Shown here: one piece after another, positions 1,050-48,786 of the stretch
How positions within the stretch are numbered: position 1 is the first letter of the stretch
Layout of the letters: every line of letters begins with the position of its first letter
From: Bdellovibrionales bacterium
GTDB lineage: Bacteria > Bdellovibrionota > Bdellovibrionia > Bdellovibrionales > UBA1609
Direction of reading: 5' to 3'
Assembly (NCBI GenBank): GCA_023301025.1
Contig: JALZUR010000021.1
Coordinates: 1,183-65,182 of the forward strand
Length of the DNA stretch: 64,000 bases
Position numbers and translations under genes: made by a program
Notes under the pieces: model-generated
Told to the model about the DNA's origin: nothing
The model's input: only the letters and a program-made list of their open reading frames with translations
The model's database searches: none

Positions 1050-1790
1050 ATGTCAGAACCAGTTGATTGGACGAATTGGTTAAACCATGAGTTAAAAACG
1101 CCACTGAATAGAATGGAAAGCCTTATTCTATCTCTTAAAAAGTCCAAACTTTCAGGTTTTAGTGAGCAAAAAATAATGATGTCTCTTATGAGCTCATTAG
1201 AAGAGTGCAGGTCTACAATAGATTCACTTTTTCTATTCAATAAGATTCAGGTTGATAATATTCATTTGAAGCTAAACCATTATGATATCAATACATTGGT
1301 GACTCAAGTTTGTCAGGATTTAGATCTAGTTGCTGAAGCAAAACACGTTAAATTTATTATAGAAGCAGAGCCTTTATTTTTAATCCCTTTAGATGAACAG
1401 CTTTTTAAAAGAGCTTTGTCTAACATTATAACTAATGCTGTTAAGTTTAGTCCAAATGACTCAAAAATTTTAATCTCAACGGAGTCTATTAACCGTAAGT
1501 TCTACATTCAAGTTGCTGATCAAGGTGTAGGTATGGATGAAAATGAACTTAATAAAATTTTTGACCCTTACTACAGAGTTGAACAAAGCTCCTATATACC
1601 AGGAACTGGTCTAGGGCTTTTTATTGCAAAAAGCTTTATGAAGTCTTTAAATGGAAGAATTTCTGTTGATTCAGTTAAGGGAGCAGGAACTACATTTACT
1701 ATGATTTTGGATGTTGATGCTTTAGAAAAGATAAATCAATTGAATGAGGAAAAGATAGATTCTTCTTTGAAGGGGGAGCATGCTCTTTAA
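1050..1790 (+). CDS. Minimal cytoplasmic sensor histidine kinase (DHp + HATPase only; no TM or sensor domain)
   Basis: H-box LNHELKTPLN begins at residue 11. N-box NIITNAVKFSP, G1 DQGVGMD, G2 GTGLGL. GAGGAG RBS lies before the ATG and an in-frame TGA 12 nt upstream prevents extension. Confidence 0.85.
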   Translation: MSEPVDWTNWLNHELKTPLNRMESLILSLKKSKLSGFSEQKIMMSLMSSLEECRSTIDSLFLFNKIQVDNIHLKLNHYDINTLVTQVCQDLDLVAEAKHVKFIIEAEPLFLIPLDEQLFKRALSNIITNAVKFSPNDSKILISTESINRKFYIQVADQGVGMDENELNKIFDPYYRVEQSSYIPGTGLGLFIAKSFMKSLNGRISVDSVKGAGTTFTMILDVDALEKINQLNEEKIDSSLKGEHAL

Positions 1791-3297
1791 AACCTTAATA
1801 ATAGATGATGATTATATCTTAAGAAACTCTTTGGATGATATTTTTCAAGAGCATAAAAGTATTGATAAAGTTGTTCATGCGGAAAATGGGAAAAGAGGCT
1901 TAGACAGGTTAAAGAGTGAAGAGTTTGATTTAGTTTTTATAGACATTGATATGCCAATCTTAGATGGCATGAGTGTTTTAAGAAGTGCTATTGATGAACA
2001 TCCTGAACGTATTTTTGTTATGATGACCTCTTTTGGTAAAATTACAGACGCTGTAGAGTCTATAAAGCTTGGTGCTTTTAATTTTATTGAAAAGCCCTTA
2101 AGAAAAGATGCTGTTTTTAAACTTTTAGATGAAATTTCTAATGCTGTAGATCTTTTAAAAAAGATGGAGCATCTTTCGCCTTTGGCTTTTGAAGAAGGTA
2201 AAGAGATAATTGGTAAAACCTCAGAAGTTAAAGAGGTCTTAGATTTAATTCAACGACTATCTAAAGTGATGACACCTGTTCTTATACAAGGAGAGTCTGG
2301 TACTGGTAAAGAGCTTGTTGCAAGAGCGCTTCATTCGAATTCTCCTAGAAAATCAAAACCCTTTATCTCTACGAACTGTTCGGCTATTCCTGAGAATCTT
2401 TTTGAATCAGAATTTTTTGGCCATGAAAAAGGAAGTTTTACTGGTGCAGATGATAAAAAGATTGGGAAGTTTCAATTTGCGCAAGGTGGAACACTTTTTT
2501 TAGATGAAATTGGAGATCTTAGTTTATTGAATCAGGTCAAACTTTTAAGAGTACTTCAAGAGAAAAAATACAGTCCCCTTGGATCACATATCGAAGTGCC
2601 TTATGATGTGAGAATTGTTGCAGCTACTCATAAAAATTTGGAGCAAATGGTTTTAGACAAAGAGTTCAGACAAGATTTGTACTTTAGACTTAATGTGATG
2701 AACCTTACCCTCCCAAGTTTAAAAGAAAGAAAAGAAGACATTCCTGATTTAATAAAGATCTTTATTGATAACTTTAACTTAAAGCATGAAAAAAATATTT
2801 TAGGGTGCACAAAAAACTACTTAAAAGCTCTTATGGACTATGATTTTCCTGGAAATATCAGAGAGTTAGAAAATGCGCTAGAACGAGCTTTTGTATTAAC
2901 TGATCAAGCATGGATTGATGTGGGCGCACTTCCAAGACAAATCACATTAAAAGAAAATAAAAGTACCAGTGAAAATACAGAGCCTAGTTTCAAAGATCAA
3001 AACGAATTTAAAGGTAAGCAGTCATCAGTTAAAGAAAATAGTTCAATTAAAAATTCAGACACTTTTAGCAGTGAGTCTTTAAAAAGCCTGCAACCTGAAA
3101 TTGCTATAGATTCCAGGGATCTGAACTTTCAAAAAAACAAAGATGAGTTTGAAAAAAAATTTATTGAAGAGGCCTTAAAAAGAAATAAAGGTATGTTAAA
3201 TCAAACAGCTCTTCAGGCAAATATTCCTAAAAAAACACTTCAAAGAAAAATTCAGAAGTACAATATTGATTTGCTTAATTTTAAGTTAAAAAAATAG
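1780..3297 (+). CDS. Sigma-54-dependent response regulator (REC + AAA+ activator + Fis-type HTH), NtrC family
   Basis: Receiver motif DLVFIDIDMP, Walker A GESGTGKE, GAFTGA-loop variant EKGSFTGA, C-terminal HTH NQTALQANIPKKTLQRKIQKYNI. The ATG overlaps the kinase stop by 11 nt. Confidence 0.9.
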   Translation: MLFKTLIIDDDYILRNSLDDIFQEHKSIDKVVHAENGKRGLDRLKSEEFDLVFIDIDMPILDGMSVLRSAIDEHPERIFVMMTSFGKITDAVESIKLGAFNFIEKPLRKDAVFKLLDEISNAVDLLKKMEHLSPLAFEEGKEIIGKTSEVKEVLDLIQRLSKVMTPVLIQGESGTGKELVARALHSNSPRKSKPFISTNCSAIPENLFESEFFGHEKGSFTGADDKKIGKFQFAQGGTLFLDEIGDLSLLNQVKLLRVLQEKKYSPLGSHIEVPYDVRIVAATHKNLEQMVLDKEFRQDLYFRLNVMNLTLPSLKERKEDIPDLIKIFIDNFNLKHEKNILGCTKNYLKALMDYDFPGNIRELENALERAFVLTDQAWIDVGALPRQITLKENKSTSENTEPSFKDQNEFKGKQSSVKENSSIKNSDTFSSESLKSLQPEIAIDSRDLNFQKNKDEFEKKFIEEALKRNKGMLNQTALQANIPKKTLQRKIQKYNIDLLNFKLKK

Positions 3298-41952: not shown

Positions 41953-42010
41953 TTTTAATTTACATACCTAAGCCTTTTAAAAAACAATTAATACTTACTT
42001 TCTTATACTT

Positions 42011-42646
42011 TTAAGGCGTGTCTGGTTGCACGTCAGGGTGAGCTTTTGAAAACGAATCAAGGTCTTTACAGTTATCATAAATTCTTTGAAGATTTTCGTA
42101 CTTAGTAAGATCTAGTTCAAATCTTTTAGCATTATAGAGTTGTGGCAGTAAAAACATATCTGCAGCAGTGACATTAGAACCCATTGCAAAAGGTCCATCA
42201 TTTGAACATTTGGTGTTAAAAGCTTCTAAGCCTTTATCAATAAAGTACCTACACCACTCTATTTTTTGATCTTCTGATATTAAGAACTCTTTTTTCAACT
42301 TTTTTAAAACTGAGAGATTTTGAAGAGGTTGTGTACCACTATTAATGATTTCAACCAGTTCTAAGCACTTCTCAAAGTCAGGTAGATGTTTTGGAAACAA
42401 CTGCTTTTCTATATAGGCTCTATCTAAATAAAAAAAGATTGCAACACTTTGACTAAGAGAAATATTTTTATCAACTAGGGTAGGCACTTCAGCCTTAGGG
42501 TTAACTTTTGTATAAGCGTCTTTGTTCTGTTCACCGCCATCTTTTAAGAGGTGAACAGCTTTATAGTCATAACTAATTTGTTTATGGTTTAGAGCAATTC
42601 TTACTCTGTATGCACTTGAACTTCTGTAGTAGGAGTATAATTTCAT
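42011..42646 (-). CDS. maiA: Maleylacetoacetate isomerase (zeta-class GST)
   Basis: MKLYSYYRSSSAYRVRIALNHK and GGEQNKDAYTKVNPKAEVPTL. Confidence 0.85.
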   Translation of the reverse strand: MKLYSYYRSSSAYRVRIALNHKQISYDYKAVHLLKDGGEQNKDAYTKVNPKAEVPTLVDKNISLSQSVAIFFYLDRAYIEKQLFPKHLPDFEKCLELVEIINSGTQPLQNLSVLKKLKKEFLISEDQKIEWCRYFIDKGLEAFNTKCSNDGPFAMGSNVTAADMFLLPQLYNAKRFELDLTKYENLQRIYDNCKDLDSFSKAHPDVQPDTP

Positions 42647-42731
42647 TAAAGGAAAATACTAGATTATAAGCCTAAATTAAAAATACCTCGCGTTATTTAG
42701 CTTTTGGATAAAAAGTTTAGTCTATCTCACC

Positions 42732-42775
42732 TGTAAAGCCTAGAAGTGTAAAAAACACCTAATTGCGGCTTTACA
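42732..42775. promoter_or_regulatory. Inverted repeat in the divergent maiA / FAH promoter region (candidate operator)
   Basis: tgtaaagcc (42732-42740) / ggctttaca (42767-42775), with an inner gtgt/acac pair. Confidence 0.25.
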
Positions 42776-42839
42776 CTAAAGGCCTTAAATTAATAGCACT
42801 CTTATGATATTAAATGTGAAATTAAGAGGGAGTTTTTTA

Positions 42840-43823
42840 ATGAAATTAGGCACTTTAAAATCAAATGAATCTAAAGATGGTAAGCTTGTTGTTGTAAGTA
42901 AAGACAATAAAAAAGCCGCACATGTTGATACTGTCCAGAATTTAATTACAGCGTTAGAAAATTGGGACAAGTTTACTCCAAAATTTAAAAGTATCTATGA
43001 GTCTTTAAACAGTGGTGATTTTAATAAAGTAGATGCTTTTGATGTAGAGCCTAAAGATTTTCATTCTCCACTTCCAAGAACTTGGCAGTGGTTAGATGGC
43101 TCAGCTTTTATTCATCATATAAAGCTTGTTAGAATGGCAAGAAATGCAGCTTTACCAGAAACTTTAGAAACTGTTCCTTTAATGTATCAAGGCTGTAGCG
43201 ATAATTTTTTAGCTCCAACTGAAGATATACCTCAAGTTGATTTCGCGCACGGAACAGACTTTGAAGGTGAGGTTGGTGTTATTTTAAAAGATGTTCCCAT
43301 GGGGACAAAAGCAAAGGATGCGCTAGATTATGTAGCCTTAATCGTTCTTATTAACGATGTTTCATTAAGAGGTCTAATACCTGCTGAACTTAAGCAAGGT
43401 TTTGGTTTTGTGCAATCAAAGCCAGCTTCTAGTTTTGGACCATTTGCTGTAACACCAGATGAGCTAGGTTCTGATTGGAAAAATGGACGCATTCATTTGC
43501 CTTTAAGTGTTTCATTCAATGGCGAGTTTTTTGGTAAAGCTAATGCAAAAGAGATGTTTTTTAGTTTTTCTGAACTTATTGAACACGCTGCAAAAACTCG
43601 TGATTTAGCTGCCGGAACAATTATTGGAAGCGGGACAGTTTCAAATGAAAATCCAGAAATGGGCTCTAGCTGTTTAGCAGAAAAAAGAATGTTAGAGAAA
43701 ATTAATAAGGGTGAATTTAAAACCCCATTTATGAAACACGGGGATCACATCGAAATGGAGATGCTAGACTCAAATAATCAAAGTCTTTTTGGTAAAATCA
43801 ATCAAAAGGTTAAAGCTTTATAG
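42840..43823 (+). CDS. Fumarylacetoacetate hydrolase-family enzyme
   Basis: FAH-fold motifs DFEGEVGVIL, LINDVSLR and GTIIGSGTVSN. AAGAGGGAG RBS before ATG 42840. Confidence 0.8.
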   Translation: MKLGTLKSNESKDGKLVVVSKDNKKAAHVDTVQNLITALENWDKFTPKFKSIYESLNSGDFNKVDAFDVEPKDFHSPLPRTWQWLDGSAFIHHIKLVRMARNAALPETLETVPLMYQGCSDNFLAPTEDIPQVDFAHGTDFEGEVGVILKDVPMGTKAKDALDYVALIVLINDVSLRGLIPAELKQGFGFVQSKPASSFGPFAVTPDELGSDWKNGRIHLPLSVSFNGEFFGKANAKEMFFSFSELIEHAAKTRDLAAGTIIGSGTVSNENPEMGSSCLAEKRMLEKINKGEFKTPFMKHGDHIEMEMLDSNNQSLFGKINQKVKAL

Positions 43824-43837
43824 CCTTAACCTTTTTT
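43806..43837 (+). terminator. Rho-independent terminator overlapping the FAH stop codon
   Basis: aaggttaaagc (43806-43816) / gccttaacctt (43823-43833): an 11-bp stem with one A-C mismatch and loop tttata. A T-run extends to 43837. Confidence 0.6.
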
Positions 43838-43857
43838 AAACTGAGAAGTAGAATATC

Positions 43858-44142
43858 TTAGTTAACTATTTTATTATCTTCTAATCTACTTTTAGAAGTG
43901 ATAATTGAAGTGATACAGCTCTCTTCACGAAGCATAAAATTTGTAATCAAGCTTGTAACGAAATCTTTTTTCTCACCCTCTAAAGCATCAATATCTCCGT
44001 AATGAGAAACAACACCATCTGTATAATGATCAACTAAAGACTCACATGTTGTTGAAAGGGTTTCGATATCAATAGTTTCGATTGAAGCAAAACTAACATT
44101 TGCACTCAAAATTAAAGCTAAAAAAATTAATGTCTTTTTCAT
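43858..44142 (-). CDS. Small secreted protein of unknown function
   Basis: ATG 44142 is preceded by AGGAG 5 nt upstream. Signal peptide MKKTLIFLALILSANVSFAS; two Cys in the mature part. Confidence 0.5.
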   Translation of the reverse strand: MKKTLIFLALILSANVSFASIETIDIETLSTTCESLVDHYTDGVVSHYGDIDALEGEKKDFVTSLITNFMLREESCITSIITSKSRLEDNKIVN

Positions 44143-44344
44143 AAAAACTCCTGTTTTCATAATTTATTTACCTTTTACTAAGCAAAAGCTATGCCTAAAA
44201 TATAAAGGCTCAAATACCTCTAAAATAGATTTGAGACATCAAAAATGAGCTTTAAATCGACACGCTGTCAAAAGTTTAGTGACCTGTAAACTAAAGTCGA
44301 TAGCTATCATAAGAGAAGTAAGCTTTAAGGTGTATCAAAGAAGC

Positions 44345-44923
44345 TTATAAATTTGATACAAAGTCTTTGATTTCACGAAACGAAGCTTGAAGTGTCTTTA
44401 AGTGACTACTGTTATAAAGTGGAACGCCATTTTGTTGAAGTTTAATTAGCGTATAAATAGTACAAAGCTTCGGAGCTAAAAAATCTTTTAGATAAGCTTG
44501 TTTCTCTAAATCTTTTTGAGGGTCTATTGTCTTAGTATCAATACTTGTAGAATCGATTTGAAAGCCAATAAAAAATGAATGATCTTCAATAACAATGGGA
44601 AGCGTGACTAAGCGATTGTAGAACTTTGTTCCATCTTTTCGGTAGTTTATCACATCAGCATAAAAAGGGATCTGTTGATTTAAAGCCTCTCTCATCCTTA
44701 AGATTGTGGACTGATCTGATTCTTTACCTTGAAGAAATTTACAGTTTTTACCAACACAGTGCTCTTTTGAGTAACCTGTAAGTCTACTAAAAAGGTCATT
44801 AACCCTAAGTATTTTTCTACTATTTGGGTCGGCATCAGTTAATATTGCGGCACACTTTGATGAATCAACAATATCAAAAAGTATTGATGTTTTTGATTTA
44901 AGTTTAACTAAAGAATCAAGCAT
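44345..44923 (-). CDS. Short LOV (light-oxygen-voltage, flavin-binding PAS) photosensor protein
   Basis: GKNCKFLQGKESD (canonical GRNCRFLQG; Cys codon at 44741-44743), NYRKDGTKFYNRL and FFIGFQID. Collinear with the YtvA core as I recall it. ATG 44923 overlaps the upstream stop (ATGCTTGA). Confidence 0.85.
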   Translation of the reverse strand: MLDSLVKLKSKTSILFDIVDSSKCAAILTDADPNSRKILRVNDLFSRLTGYSKEHCVGKNCKFLQGKESDQSTILRMREALNQQIPFYADVINYRKDGTKFYNRLVTLPIVIEDHSFFIGFQIDSTSIDTKTIDPQKDLEKQAYLKDFLAPKLCTIYTLIKLQQNGVPLYNSSHLKTLQASFREIKDFVSNL

Positions 44924-47459
44924 TTTTTGACTCTTCTTTATAAAATTCAATTGCTGAAATAATAAGACCAAGGATAGAGTTAGTCTCTTTATCTTTTGAA
45001 GGAAAAATTTCTATTAAGACTCTTACACCAGTATTAAGAAAAATTTCTTTTCTTAAATAATCTTTTTTACCATTAAATATCTGAGTAATTTCATGATTGA
45101 TATCAAAATCTTTACCTTTAAAAGAGAAATCTAAAATACTTCGTCCTTTATCAAATTCAGTTAAGTTGTAAATTATATTAGATTTTGGGGTAAATCTAAG
45201 AACTTCATATGAAGGCCCAAGAAAAATAAAGGCTTTTTGAGTTAAAGAAAAAAGGCGGTCTACATTACTGTTCGAAGATTTATAGTGTCCAATAGTTTTT
45301 TGATACTCAAAATTAAGCACATGAAGCTGTTCATTAACAGATTGAAGTTCTTCATTTGTACTCATAAGTTCTTCATTAGAAGACAACAACTTTTCATTAA
45401 TACTATTGAGTTCATCATACATAGTCTCAAGTGATTGGTTTTTTTTGTCTATTATTGATTGTTTTTGAATAATTTCATTTTCAAGACTCTTTATTCTTAA
45501 AAGTGTTTCATCGTTTAAGAATAAAGTTTCTGTTGATTGATCAAGGCTATTTAACTCGTGATTTTTAATGTGGATAATACAAGAGTACCTGTCTTTATCT
45601 AATTTTATGGGAAGAGCTGTTAAAATATAAGCCTTATCATTAATAGATATTGGAGATCCAGTTTTGACAGATTTTCCTTTTAATTTTGCCTCTTCAATGA
45701 GTGCCAAGGTTGAGTCTTTTAATTTTAAGTTTGTTAAGTTCGAAAGTGAAATATTTAATTTTCCACGATTTATATCATTTAAAAAAACACTTCCAAGGCC
45801 ATAAGAGTGAGTAATGTTATTATTAGGATCAATGAAAATACCATCTTTTACTATACTGTCTAAAATACAGTTGGATAAATTTTTATCATCAATTGAATTT
45901 TTTTTTGTTCTTAAATTTGAAACGTTATTTGTGGAAATAACATCAAAATCATCTTTTTCTTTAGAGTGTAATAAGTGCTGAATATTTTTTTTCTTAGTTG
46001 GCGTTAGTTCTTTTCTTTGAAATATTCTCCATTTGTCATTAATTACATCAAAACTATCCTCAAGATCATGTAGCGATTCACTTGGCCCTAAGAGTAAAAC
46101 TCCTTTCTCATTTAAAGCATAGAAAAAAGATTTTAAAGAAGATTTTTGATACATCTGTTTTAAGTAAATCAATAGATTTCTGCAGCTTAAAAGATCTATA
46201 TTTTTAAAGGGAATATCTTTAAAAATATTATGCGTAGAAAAAACTATTTTTGATCTTATTTGTTTATTTATAATGTATGTATCATTGATTTTATTGAAGT
46301 ATTTAAGAATTTGATCTTTTTCTTTTAAGTTATCAAAACTTTTTTCTGAGTAAACCCCACGGGAGGCTTTTGAGATAATATCAGGGTTAATGTCTGTTGC
46401 AAAAATTGTATAATCAATAGGAGGAATTATATTTTTACGTATACATTCTTCAATAGAAATGGCGATAGAGTAGGGCTCTTGTCCAGTGGAGCACCCTGCT
46501 GACCATATTCTAAGTGAATCATCCTCTTTTTTTTTCGCTATAAGATCCGGCAAAACCCTATCTGTGATAAGTTCAAAAAAATTTGGATCTCTAAAAAAAT
46601 TTGTGACAGGAACAAGTAAGCTATTAAATAGTTGCTTAAGTTCAGAGGGGTCATTATAAAGATAATCTAAATAGTCATCACCATTTGTAACTTGAAGAGT
46701 ACTGAACCTATTTTTAAGCCTTCTGTTTATTGTATTTGATTTGTATGCATTCAAATCAAGATTGTAAGTGTTTTGAATAAGATCAAAAATTTTTTTTAGA
46801 GAACCTATCTGCTCAATTTTTTCATCGTTAAACAAGCTCTCTGTGTCTTCTATATTTTCAATGTGACGGTTAATTTTACCAAAGATATCTTTGGATTTAC
46901 AGACAATATCTACAGCATCGGTTTCTAGAGTTTGTGTCGGCATTCCATCAAAAGTACTTTCATGTGGATCTTGACAGATTACTAAGCCATTGTTTTTTTT
47001 AATCTCTTGTACACCAAGTGATCCATCAGAGCCTGCGCCGGATAGAACAACCGCAACGCAGTTGTTCTTCTTCTCTTTTGCAAGTGATATGAAAAAGTTA
47101 TCAATCAAATGTCTACTTTTAGATCCTGTTGGTGGCTTGTCTATAAGTCTTAATTTATTATCGTTTAGACTAATATGTACACCAGGTGGTGTTAGGTAAA
47201 CATGTCCAGATTTAATATCTTGATCATTAGATGTATTGATAAATTTTAAATCAGAGTCTTTTTTAAGTATCTCAAGCATTGAGCTTTTATGATTTGGTGA
47301 GAGGTGTTGTGTAACAACAAAAGCACAGTCTTTTACAGACTCAGAGTTTTTTGATTTAAACATTGCTTTTAAAGCACTTAAGCCGCCAGCTGAAGCACCT
47401 ATACCTACAATATATGTTGGATCAGATTTATCATTATCTTTAATAAGTGATAGCATCAA
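44916..47459 (-). CDS. CheB methylesterase - CheR methyltransferase - PAS - coiled coil - PAS fusion protein (no kinase or receiver)
   Basis: CheB triad context GIGASAGG / TQHLSP / LSGAGSDGS. CheR SAM site LRIWSAGCSTGQEPYS. Coiled coil SSNEELMSTNEELQSVNEQL. PAS_10-like LRFTPKSNIIYNLTEFDKGRSILD. Confidence 0.9.
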   Translation of the reverse strand: MMLSLIKDNDKSDPTYIVGIGASAGGLSALKAMFKSKNSESVKDCAFVVTQHLSPNHKSSMLEILKKDSDLKFINTSNDQDIKSGHVYLTPPGVHISLNDNKLRLIDKPPTGSKSRHLIDNFFISLAKEKKNNCVAVVLSGAGSDGSLGVQEIKKNNGLVICQDPHESTFDGMPTQTLETDAVDIVCKSKDIFGKINRHIENIEDTESLFNDEKIEQIGSLKKIFDLIQNTYNLDLNAYKSNTINRRLKNRFSTLQVTNGDDYLDYLYNDPSELKQLFNSLLVPVTNFFRDPNFFELITDRVLPDLIAKKKEDDSLRIWSAGCSTGQEPYSIAISIEECIRKNIIPPIDYTIFATDINPDIISKASRGVYSEKSFDNLKEKDQILKYFNKINDTYIINKQIRSKIVFSTHNIFKDIPFKNIDLLSCRNLLIYLKQMYQKSSLKSFFYALNEKGVLLLGPSESLHDLEDSFDVINDKWRIFQRKELTPTKKKNIQHLLHSKEKDDFDVISTNNVSNLRTKKNSIDDKNLSNCILDSIVKDGIFIDPNNNITHSYGLGSVFLNDINRGKLNISLSNLTNLKLKDSTLALIEEAKLKGKSVKTGSPISINDKAYILTALPIKLDKDRYSCIIHIKNHELNSLDQSTETLFLNDETLLRIKSLENEIIQKQSIIDKKNQSLETMYDELNSINEKLLSSNEELMSTNEELQSVNEQLHVLNFEYQKTIGHYKSSNSNVDRLFSLTQKAFIFLGPSYEVLRFTPKSNIIYNLTEFDKGRSILDFSFKGKDFDINHEITQIFNGKKDYLRKEIFLNTGVRVLIEIFPSKDKETNSILGLIISAIEFYKEESKNA

Positions 47460-47504
47460 AATTCCTATAAACTAAAAGTTAAGTAATAGTGAAAACAACA
47501 AGAG

Positions 47505-48245
47505 TTAATGTGCTACTCTTAGGTGCTCAACGTTCATTGCACTAGAGTGTAAGTGACTAAAGTCAGTATTAAACTTTTTCTGAATACTCTTAAGATCTCT
47601 TGGCACTACAGAAAATACGGATTTAAAACTCTTGATCATGTGAGATTGATCATAAAATCCACAGTGTGCAGCAATAGAGGCGCCGTGTTTTTTGTTAGCT
47701 AGTATGTGTTCTAAAGCAAGGTGACATCTAATGATTTTTAAGAATGTAAATGGAGTAAGACCGTAGCTTTGTTTAAAAGAGCGCATCAGATAGCCAGTGC
47801 TCACTAGAGATTTTTTAGCTAACTCTTCAACAGAAAATTTTTCTATTGTGTGGTCTAAGATATAATTCATGGCAAATTCAGCACCTTTTTGACCTTTGTT
47901 TTCTAGTTTATCAAAATTTAGTGTTCTATTCAAAAAATAGTCTGCGCTGTTTGTTAGTCTATATTCAATATGAAATTCTACATCTTCACCTTCGGTATAA
48001 ACAGAAAAGAATAAAGGAGTGTCCCAATAAAATTTGTTGTAATTTGGGTTCGGACATTGAATCAGATTGTTTTTAACGTTTAGTTTTAGAGAGCCTTTTG
48101 TGACAGTAATATTACCGCCAGAAAAGCCATATAGCCCTACAGGCGAATCAAAAGTGGCTTCCTTAGTAAGTTTAAATGAAAATAACACATAATTATCATC
48201 TTTAGATATATCAATGTTTTGGAAGATTAGGTTTTGAGTGTTCAT
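47505..48245 (-). CDS. AraC-family transcriptional regulator
   Basis: C-terminal double HTH (FSVEELAKKSLVSTGYLMRSFKQSYGLTPFTF...AAHCGFYDQSHMIKSFK) with an N-terminal beta-rich sensor-like half. AAGGAG RBS. Confidence 0.85.
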   Translation of the reverse strand: MNTQNLIFQNIDISKDDNYVLFSFKLTKEATFDSPVGLYGFSGGNITVTKGSLKLNVKNNLIQCPNPNYNKFYWDTPLFFSVYTEGEDVEFHIEYRLTNSADYFLNRTLNFDKLENKGQKGAEFAMNYILDHTIEKFSVEELAKKSLVSTGYLMRSFKQSYGLTPFTFLKIIRCHLALEHILANKKHGASIAAHCGFYDQSHMIKSFKSVFSVVPRDLKSIQKKFNTDFSHLHSSAMNVEHLRVAH

Positions 48246-48371
48246 AGCATTTTCTCCTTCTAATAAAGTCTTCTTTTATTTAATCCAATTAACTTCATCT
48301 AAAATTATAGACATAATTTTTATTGTATAATAATTACTAGAAACTAATTATAAAAATTACCATTCTAAACA

Positions 48372-48419
48372 TGTAAAAAGGTAAATTAGCACATAAAGTA
48401 TGTTGTATTACCTTTTACA
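48372..48419. repeat. Nested imperfect palindrome in an AT-rich intergenic region
   Basis: tgtaaaaaggtaa (48372-48384) / ttaccttttaca (48408-48419) with a one-nt bulge, enclosing acata (48391-48395) / tatgt (48399-48403). Confidence 0.5.
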
Positions 48420-48476
48420 GTTAAATTAAAAATTTTAAATTTTCTAGAAGTACATAACATAAAAAAATAAACGTAA

Positions 48477-48534
48477 AAAATACAAAAAAAATTAAAGCAA
48501 TAAAATACAATAAAAATGTCATTTTTTGTATTTT
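48477..48534. repeat. Perfect 13-bp inverted repeat
   Basis: aaaatacaaaaaa (48477-48489) / ttttttgtatttt (48522-48534) with a 32-nt spacer. The composition is low-complexity. Confidence 0.45.
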
Positions 48535-48786
48535 ATATATTTATGCAAGGTTAAATTAAATTTTTTACATGAAAATCTTGTTAGAAAGGGTGTCAAAAGG
48601 GAACCAGAAAATAATTCTAGCAAATAGCTGTTGTAGCAATTTGCGCTTTTTCCTTTTGTTAATTTTTTGATGATCAAGAAAATGAAAGGCTCAAAAAGAG
48701 AAAGCGTCATTATCAATCTAATTGAAAAATTTATTTTAATATAAAATTAAAAAATACTTTTAGTTAAAAACCATAGGAGGTTTTAT

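Follow-up and report, generated by a model that had tools for sequence, protein, structure and literature searches.

The 64,000-nucleotide (nt) stretch analysed here (the window; contig JALZUR010000021.1 from a Bdellovibrionales bacterium) contains at 44345-48245 three minus-strand open reading frames (ORFs), which encode an AraC-type regulator, a CheB-CheR fusion protein without a kinase (CheBR) and a short LOV protein (Table 1). The araC-cheBR-LOV block is a genuine, conserved and selected gene arrangement, and every part of the operon belongs to a known family. An earlier note on this DNA had proposed that the LOV protein is a detachable blue-light sensor subunit for a protein (de)methylation enzyme. 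The features on which it was built were reproduced as claimed, namely the ORF coordinates and strand, the gap of 45 nt between the end of araC and the TTG start of cheBR, the adduct-cysteine codon at 44741-44743 and the 8-nt overlap between cheBR and LOV. No terminator-like site was found between araC, cheBR and LOV. Gene callers place the start of CheBR at ATG 47456, which yields a protein of 846 amino acids (aa). Profile searches for the domain boundaries were run, and CheB_methylest, CheR, PAS_10 and LOV/PAS_9 all scored well above the level of chance.

Table 1. Features of the araC-cheBR-LOV block and its downstream flank, in window coordinates.
Feature	Position	Strand	Size or residues	Remarks
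AraC/XylS-family transcription regulator	47505-48245	-	246 aa	
Kinase-less CheB-CheR fusion protein	44916-47459	-	847 aa	from TTG 47459
CheB methylesterase catalytic domain	46875-47408	-	aa 18-195	GASAGG (Ser), QHL (His) and GSDG (Asp) intact
CheR_N + CheR S-adenosylmethionine (SAM)-dependent methyltransferase	46029-46799	-	aa 221-477	RIWSAGCSTGQEPYS, ATDI and CRNLLIY intact
PAS-like alpha/beta domain	45558-45887	-	aa ~525-634	AlphaFold2 and Foldseek
Single ~90-residue helix	45243-45512	-	aa ~650-739	AlphaFold2
N-E-E-L-x-[AS]-[ST] heptads	45306-45419	-	aa ~681-718	DELNSIN EKLLSSN EELMSTN EELQSVN EQLHVLN
C-terminal PAS_10	44949-45260	-	aa 734-837	Pfam 5.9e-10; AlphaFold2 pLDDT ~90
Shine-Dalgarno-like GAAGAG	44931-44936	-		7-nt spacer before LOV ATG
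8-nt overlap ATGCTTGA	44916-44923	-		exact sequence match
LOV ATG overlapping CheBR stop TGA	44921-44923 (ATG); 44916-44918 (TGA)	-		
Short LOV protein	44345-44923	-	192 aa	from ATG 44923
LOV core	44543-44884	-	aa ~14-127	
Variable LOV linker			aa 129-138	
Conserved LOV C-terminal tail	44348-44509	-	aa 139-192	
Sigma-54-type -24/-12 match GGCATAGCTTTTGC	44182-44195	-		spacer between LOV stop (44345) and small signal-peptide gene
Small signal-peptide (secreted-protein) gene	43858-44160		94/100 aa	ATG 44142 or 44160
Terminator-like hairpin	43804-43835			after small secreted-protein gene

The exact 192-aa protein was called on six contigs from independent assemblies, and the junction between cheBR and LOV is identical in L001 and L002 and across independent Logan and ENA assemblies. 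In the ortholog locus L003, which preserves the order araC-cheBR-LOV-small gene, the LOV protein (P0002) is ~81% identical and the genes share the same 8-nt overlap; the Shine-Dalgarno-like GAAGAG and ATGCTTGA are invariant there, and the surrounding bases vary. Selection was estimated with the Nei-Gojobori method between the window and L003, at a synonymous divergence (dS) of ~0.8-1.0, and the ratios of nonsynonymous to synonymous divergence (dN/dS) of 0.10 for LOV, 0.12 for CheBR and 0.11 for AraC indicate purifying selection on all three genes. Because the overlap and the Shine-Dalgarno-like sequence recur in independent assemblies and in the ortholog, and because the genes are under purifying selection, the split is genuine, and cheBR and LOV are two separate ORFs, as the earlier note had read them, rather than the product of an indel. 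Programmed frameshifting at an A-run before the LOV ATG was considered and rejected, as the A-run is not kept in the L003 ortholog; with the conserved junction, this means that neither assembly nor programmed frameshifting explains the split. LOV is translationally coupled to the kinase-less CheBR. Genome and metagenome scans for further orthologs returned none that was useful, but the collections miss even the known ortholog contig, so that absence from them counts for little; one match, L012, was a classical che operon.

As judged from its sequence, the product of the 192-aa ORF is a short LOV photoreceptor that bears every hallmark of a photoactive LOV domain. The earlier note had described a complete LOV core, which was borne out by Pfam (PAS_9, 6e-14) and by comparison with solved structures, among which the best match was YtvA-LOV (2pr5; 1.1e-22, 83.7 bits), with EL222 and phototropin LOV2 also found. 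Three of its motifs, GKNCKFLQG, NYRKDGTKF and FIGFQID, line up with those of YtvA, and the adduct-forming residue is C61 (codon TGT), within GKNCKFLQG (GKNCRFLQG in YtvA). The only deviation is K62, which stands in place of the usual Arg after the adduct Cys and is likewise Lys in the ortholog (GRNCKFLQG). The equivalents of the flavin-contacting residues in the YtvA alignment, Q65, R78, N93, N103 and Q122, are all present and are invariant between the two orthologs; their counterparts in YtvA are Q66, R79, N94, N104 and Q123. The best NCBIfam model, YtvA_fam, matched at 1.7e-33 through its LOV part only, and models of blue-light histidine kinases matched as well. The protein falls outside the YtvA family proper (NF052652, LOV+STAS), since it scored 116 bits against a curated cut-off of 250; the match spans positions 2-122 of the 243 of the model, and no STAS domain is present. 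At 192 aa it has no fused effector domain, as is proper to a short LOV.

The C-terminal extension of the LOV protein deserves separate mention. Residues 128-192 matched no Pfam family at E<=10 and no Protein Data Bank (PDB) entry better than E 0.87. Within the gene, the tail is the most constrained part (dN/dS 0.054), ahead of the core (0.094), and the linker is relaxed (0.36), as computed between the window and L003. Because of this constraint, the tail is a functional element, not a decaying remnant, and it is both lineage-specific and strongly constrained. The AlphaFold2 model, which was built on a 2-sequence alignment, places two helices in the tail (139-164 and 172-191) at low confidence, with a predicted local distance difference test (pLDDT) value of 50 that is too poor for a fold search. 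In an exhaustive phmmer search of 1.84e9 representatives, only the query's own cluster covered residues 1-192; multi-PAS giants ranked first, and no close short-LOV relatives were found beyond that cluster. A reading of the tail as a degenerate DHp/HisKA segment was discarded, as it has no Pfam match at E<=10 and no PDB match, and the longer alignments of the tail to multi-PAS proteins correspond to ordinary inter-PAS linkers only.

CheBR presents the domain order CheB_methylest - CheR_N - CheR - coiled coil - PAS_10, with Pfam matches of 1.6e-44 for CheB_methylest, 4.8e-10 for CheR_N, 5.8e-51 for CheR and 5.9e-10 for PAS_10. The esterase and methyltransferase motifs are intact, in keeping with the earlier note, and they fall in invariant columns of the alignment. 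In the CheB domain, the triad S22, H51 and D144 (P0003 numbering) is invariant in 119 homologs; the domain matched the CheB structure 1chd at 1.6e-15, and Foldseek superposed the model on 1chd and 3sft with template modelling (TM) scores of 0.81-0.87. No receiver (REC) domain precedes CheB, as no Response_reg match was obtained and the domain begins at residue 18; consistently, the NCBIfam CheB models match by their C-terminal halves only. The CheR domain matched the CheR structure 5ftw at 1.2e-29 and with a Foldseek TM score of 0.87, and its alignment to the CheR proteins of B. subtilis and P. aeruginosa identified CheR_N followed by the SAM-binding domain. Its invariant columns comprise R245, R246, R250, W318, G325, E327, D355, C425, R426 and N427, so that the basic RRLxxR helix of CheR_N is invariant among the 119 homologs. 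In canonical CheR, this basic CheR_N helix recognises the methylation helix of the receptor.

The AlphaFold2 model of CheBR was built on the same 119 homologs and has a mean pLDDT of 83, with a disordered linker between CheR and the following PAS-like domain. The earlier note had described a PAS, a coiled coil and a second PAS in this half of the protein; the coiled coil, which includes SSNEELMSTNEELQSVNEQL, and the PAS_10 were recovered, and the first PAS is supported by AlphaFold2 and Foldseek only, as aa ~525-634 have no match in Pfam. This PAS-like domain has the element order H-E-E-H-E-H-E-E-E with pLDDT values of 75-88. Foldseek matched the C-terminal half of CheBR over 310-390 columns to tandem-PAS/long-helix proteins, such as DosP, FixL, PpsR and the AppA-PpsR2 complex. 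Neither HisKA nor HATPase_c was found in CheBR with Pfam.

The long helix lies between the two PAS domains. Although the 119 homologs have only ~33% identity, all of them (100%) keep the N-E of five heptads in a row; the EE pairs, each of which precedes L-x-[AS]-[ST], occur in 117-119 of these sequences. These positions are conserved to the same degree as the catalytic residues. Only in the lineage of the window do two of the pairs read EK and EQ. With a dN/dS of 0.077, the helix is the lowest segment of CheBR, tied with CheR (0.078). In chemoreceptors, methylation takes place at [EQ][EQ] pairs that recur at heptad intervals and have small residues on either side, for example EETAASM-EQLTATV in Tsr; a consensus was reportedly drawn up by Alexander and Zhulin (2007), and Gln at such sites is the deamidation target of CheB. 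Because the invariant NEE heptads resemble these sites, the helix may be a methyl-accepting substrate of its own fused CheR and CheB, as the analogy suggests, an idea that fits both the invariant basic helix of CheR_N and the lineage-specific EK and EQ. The substrate that the earlier note listed as unknown may hence lie within CheBR itself: a coiled coil with chemoreceptor-like NEE heptads would allow the protein to modify itself.

CheBR belongs to a very large family: of the 8000 candidates scored, 7766 were homologs at E<=1e-10. The earlier note had held that proteins of this architecture usually continue into an HWE/HisKA_2 kinase, which did not stand: among the 120 best homologs, 53 have no HATPase_c on record, and those with a kinase carry HisKA (PF00512) and HATPase_c, often with REC, and HisKA_2/HWE in none. 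Because of these 53, the kinase-less state is ordinary in the CheBR-PAS_10 family. In the relatives, further PAS/LOV and output domains are fused at the position of PAS_10.

The gene neighbourhoods of kinase-less members of the family were compared. P0073 (L005) has a PAS-PAS-HisKA-HATPase gene 4 nt downstream, P0106 (L006) a GGDEF-HD-GYP gene 15 nt downstream and P0019 (L007, a 2x long-read contig) a PAS-kinase-REC gene 70 nt downstream. P0022 was found on four contigs (L015-L018), where a REC gene has a 1-nt overlap with the start of CheBR and an Hpt gene lies 13 nt downstream; the unit on these contigs reads REC - CheBR-PAS_10-PAS - Hpt. This tight unit is kept on all four, and it suggests that some kinase-less CheBR proteins receive their phosphorelay control from separate proteins, in trans. 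P0028 (L008) has only a GAF-PAS-GGDEF-EAL gene upstream, and an unnamed 870-aa ORF (L020) is monocistronic, with no signalling neighbour. A tight operon in which a CheBR-PAS_10 scaffold is accompanied by a signalling partner, small or separately encoded, is thus a recurring layout, in which the short LOV is another kind of partner.

A second connection between LOV and this family was provided by the homolog P0065 (contig L004), which carries a canonical LOV (GRNCRFLQG, NYRKDGTKFWN) after PAS_10-PAS. It was at first a candidate for a kinase-less CheBR-LOV fusion and was rejected as such, as its long-read contig has 3.4x coverage with frameshifts, and the frames beyond the LOV J-alpha helix encode FLANMSHELRTP (HisKA), then HATPase_c and REC. 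P0065 is really a CheBR-PAS-LOV hybrid kinase; the link that it provides between LOV and CheBR proteins does not extend to kinase-less members. Of note, frameshifts split genes in the low-coverage long-read contigs L004 (3.4x) and L007 (2x); in L004, COX1 is broken into three, and two overlapping ORFs carry HisKA and HATPase_c separately. An architecture that looks kinase-less or truncated on such a low-coverage long-read contig is unreliable. LOV-like PAS domains that lack the cysteine occur in two more homologs. A homolog search with an approximate query, whose first ~105 residues were PAS_10 consensus-like, returned mostly plant twin-LOV proteins and did not return P0065, and hence carries no information on the frequency of CheBR-LOV fusions.

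The reading we favour, with a rough probability of 45%, and which is therefore put forward tentatively, is that this conserved accessory operon encodes a blue-light signalling module of separate polypeptides, in which the short LOV feeds light information in trans into the kinase-less CheBR scaffold and AraC is likely the transcriptional arm. In its favour we count the identity of the LOV, the conserved split and coupling, the selection on all three genes (strongest on the LOV tail), the gene order shared with L003, the invariant catalytic motifs, N-E heptads and basic CheR_N helix, the signalling partners beside kinase-less relatives, the fused LOV of P0065, the likeness of the C-terminal half of CheBR to tandem-PAS/long-helix proteins such as PpsR, and the published expectation that short LOVs work through partners (PMC4335406), in one case an adjacently encoded one (PMC9758184). 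LOV would dock in trans on the C-terminal PAS_10/helix end of CheBR, a site proposed because relatives carry fused PAS/LOV domains and outputs there. Blue light, through formation of the flavin mononucleotide (FMN)-Cys adduct, would alter the LOV-CheBR contact, and the altered contact would shift the balance between the fused CheR and CheB activities. The most likely substrate would be the invariant N-E-E heptad helix of CheBR itself, and the module would store the light signal, or adapt to it, as a methylation state. The AraC-type regulator would probably either control the operon or act as its transcriptional output. The wider proposition, that CheB-CheR-PAS_10 proteins are self-contained methylation-memory devices, with the invariant heptad helix as the methyl acceptor for their own CheR and CheB, and that the short LOV makes the methylation state light-dependent here, is a speculative one that we regard as improbable.

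Several points weigh against this light-input reading. Within the LOV protein, K62 replaces the canonical flavin-phosphate Arg, and the structural model is of low confidence (pLDDT 50). Some kinase-less CheBR genes stand alone (L008, L020), so the scaffold needs no neighbour, and overlapping genes are not always physical partners. Because the window LOV is nearer to YtvA (83.7 bits) than to the LOV of P0065 (60.7 bits), LOV has been joined to the CheBR scaffold at least twice, independently, and this is not one conserved design. As to whether the pairing with a kinase-less CheBR recurs, which the earlier note had raised, it is kept in L003, and the LOV signature is present in none of eight other CheBR contexts (11 loci, L015-L018 repeating one); LOV and CheBR are genuinely associated, but seldom so among the few loci sampled, in which only two cases were found. 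The contact between the two proteins is itself putative. For the self-substrate idea, the basis is only the motif resemblance to methyl-accepting chemotaxis proteins (MCPs), and the invariant Asn at a core heptad position could instead have a structural role or define a dynamic switch helix.

The effector of LOV might alternatively be the AraC regulator, whose N-terminal domain would be bound by the lit LOV so that its DNA binding is altered, CheBR being either co-expressed cargo or a second, independent input. This is a serious alternative because of a published precedent, in which a short LOV acts on an adjacently encoded transcription factor (PMC9758184) and by which AraC is no less legitimate a candidate effector than CheBR, although we consider it unlikely on balance. 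The regulator has the double helix-turn-helix of the AraC/XylS family in its C-terminal half (HTH_18, 1.8e-13; HTH_AraC, 4.3e-12), and its N-terminal ~120 aa matched no Pfam family at E<=10, and hence no known ligand-binding family, which speaks for this alternative. Its gene lies 45 nt upstream of cheBR on the same strand, with no terminator-like site between them, and is kept with cheBR-LOV at the same position in L003 (82.5% identical) under purifying selection. Upstream of araC, in the intergenic stretch 48246-48786, three exact copies of TTGTATTTT were found within 58 bp at 48477-48534, two on the minus strand and one on the plus strand, which form an imperfect inverted repeat. They are kept in L003 with one extra copy; across the whole window, 8 copies were observed versus 3.4 expected. 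Either the AraC-type regulator or a different one may use the cluster as its operator; use by AraC itself would fit this alternative. On the other side of the balance, LOV is coupled translationally to cheBR and not to araC, the regulator families differ (AraC here versus the LitR/MerR type of the precedent), and the fusion evidence ties LOV to CheBR-type proteins, with no LOV-AraC fusion or other such pairing seen.

Somewhat more doubtful again is that the genes are neighbours without a direct link, LOV signalling to an unlinked partner and CheBR acting on conventional chemoreceptors or on other substrates whose genes lie elsewhere in the genome. For short LOVs, a partner that is unlinked or unknown is the usual case (PMC4335406), and RsLOV or DsLOV have been proposed to signal to an unlinked one; some kinase-less CheBR genes stand alone, and the conserved basic helix of CheR_N is typical of a CheR that recognises MCPs. 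The earlier note had pointed out that chemotaxis partners are missing: this is correct within the 64 kb, where Pfam tables covering essentially the whole window contained no MCPsignal, CheW, CheA/Hpt or single-domain CheY, and the statement extends to these 64 kb only, so that MCPs may lie elsewhere in the genome. Such a neighbours-only relationship has to contend with an 8-nt overlap and an internal Shine-Dalgarno-like sequence that are kept at dS ~0.9, with a block that is gained or lost as a unit and is compositionally distinct, and with the signalling partners that recurrently adjoin CheBR genes in other lineages. Finally, that a single CheBR-PAS-LOV gene was split, either by a frameshift error in sequencing or by a recent indel that made it a pseudogene, is a reading for which frameshift-broken CheBR genes in low-coverage long-read assemblies (P0065 on L004, 3.4x) speak; it is effectively refuted by the identical junction in the independent Logan and ENA assemblies, by the overlap, stop codon and Shine-Dalgarno-like sequence kept in the ortholog at dS ~0.9, and by the strong purifying selection on both ORFs, including the LOV tail.

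The block and its adjacent genes are an accessory island, because they are missing from syntenic relatives and are more AT-rich than the flanks. The segment GST - fumarylacetoacetase-family - small gene - LOV - CheBR - AraC (~42000-48250) is missing from the relatives L013 and L014, which keep the cox-ubiA...prpD synteny, with PrpD 81-88% identical; the guanine-cytosine (GC) content of the signalling block is 0.25-0.34 versus 0.35-0.39 in the flanks. The sigma-54-type site downstream of LOV lies ~20-50 nt upstream of the start of the small secreted-protein gene and is kept as GGCACAAGTTTTGC in L003, and this gene probably has its own sigma-54 promoter and stands outside the araC-cheBR-LOV transcript. 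According to the Pfam tables, the sole two-component pair in the window is NtrB/NtrC-like (1050-3297), with an NtrB-like HATPase_c protein beside a sigma-54 activator of the NtrC type (REC-Sigma54_activat-HTH_8); the latter could serve the promoter-like site at 44182-44195.

The locus is of interest in several respects. Most bacterial short LOVs have no known signalling partner, and a LOV coupled to cheBR provides a concrete and cheaply testable one. A two-protein, kinase-less CheBR system with a light input would be convenient for finding out what CheBR enzymes methylate, themselves included. If the LOV-CheBR contact is true, it would represent a new type of natural LOV effector, with possible use in optogenetics. 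If the methylation-memory proposition is true, it would amount to a soluble, receptor-free analogue of chemoreceptor adaptation in thousands of bacteria, and in the present case to a blue-light integrator without kinase, second-messenger enzyme or chemotaxis machinery.

In the searchable literature, no functional study of the CheB-CheR-PAS_10 family was found, and no link between LOV and CheR, beyond mentions in KEGG-style annotation. The earlier note knew of no description of such a two-component arrangement; this does not stand for the pairing of a short LOV with an adjacently encoded effector, which has been published (PMC9758184), and does stand for CheB-CheR. The notion of a detachable LOV sensor that serves the product of an adjacent gene is accordingly already on record, and a CheB-CheR neighbour is not, as far as our searches reach. 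Short LOV proteins without fused effectors are thought to act through partner proteins (PMC4335406). In the closest precedent, illuminated PmSB-LOV of Pseudomonas mendocina binds PmlR2, a repressor encoded next to it, and keeps PmlR2 from binding DNA (PMC9758184). The window resembles this system in that an effector-less short LOV is encoded beside its candidate target, the signal being passed in trans by light-dependent binding in P. mendocina. PmlR2 is a class II LitR/CarH-type repressor whose interaction with the LOV is proven (PMC9758184), whereas the window LOV, for which any effector is putative, is coupled to a CheB-CheR enzyme and has no adjacent LitR/CarH regulator, the regulator of its operon being AraC-type.

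With other short LOVs (the YtvA-LOV core, PpSB1-LOV, DsLOV and RsLOV), the window protein shares a YtvA-like core (1e-22), small size and predicted helical extensions, and RsLOV also has a two-helix C-terminal extension. It differs from them in its 54-aa tail without a detectable sequence relative, in the K for R in GxNCRFLQG and in the overlap of its gene with that of a signalling enzyme. In the AppA-PpsR system of Rhodobacter sphaeroides, a separate flavin blue-light sensor binds a PAS partner with a long helix, and the C-terminal half of CheBR matched PpsR N-Q-PAS1 and the AppA-PpsR2 complex in Foldseek, with low TM scores; AppA, however, is a BLUF sensor and not a LOV, and PpsR is a DNA-binding repressor and not an enzyme.

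CheBR shares with the KEGG family K13924 ('cheBR') the same N-terminal ~850-aa architecture, the intact catalytic motifs and the invariant NEE-heptad helix. Members of K13924 usually continue with PAS and HisKA-HATPase_c-REC, and the member P0065 has a canonical LOV before its kinase, whereas the window CheBR has no kinase or other output domain, its LOV is a separate polypeptide and two of its EE pairs are EK and EQ. Relative to MCP/CheR/CheB adaptation, the window has no MCP, CheA or CheW, and its CheB has no receiver domain. The methyltransferase and methylesterase domains are homologous to those of the adaptation system, and the heptad-spaced EE (one EQ) pairs followed by small residues recall the receptor methylation sites; in the window, however, CheR and CheB are fused to each other and to a putative methyl-accepting helix.

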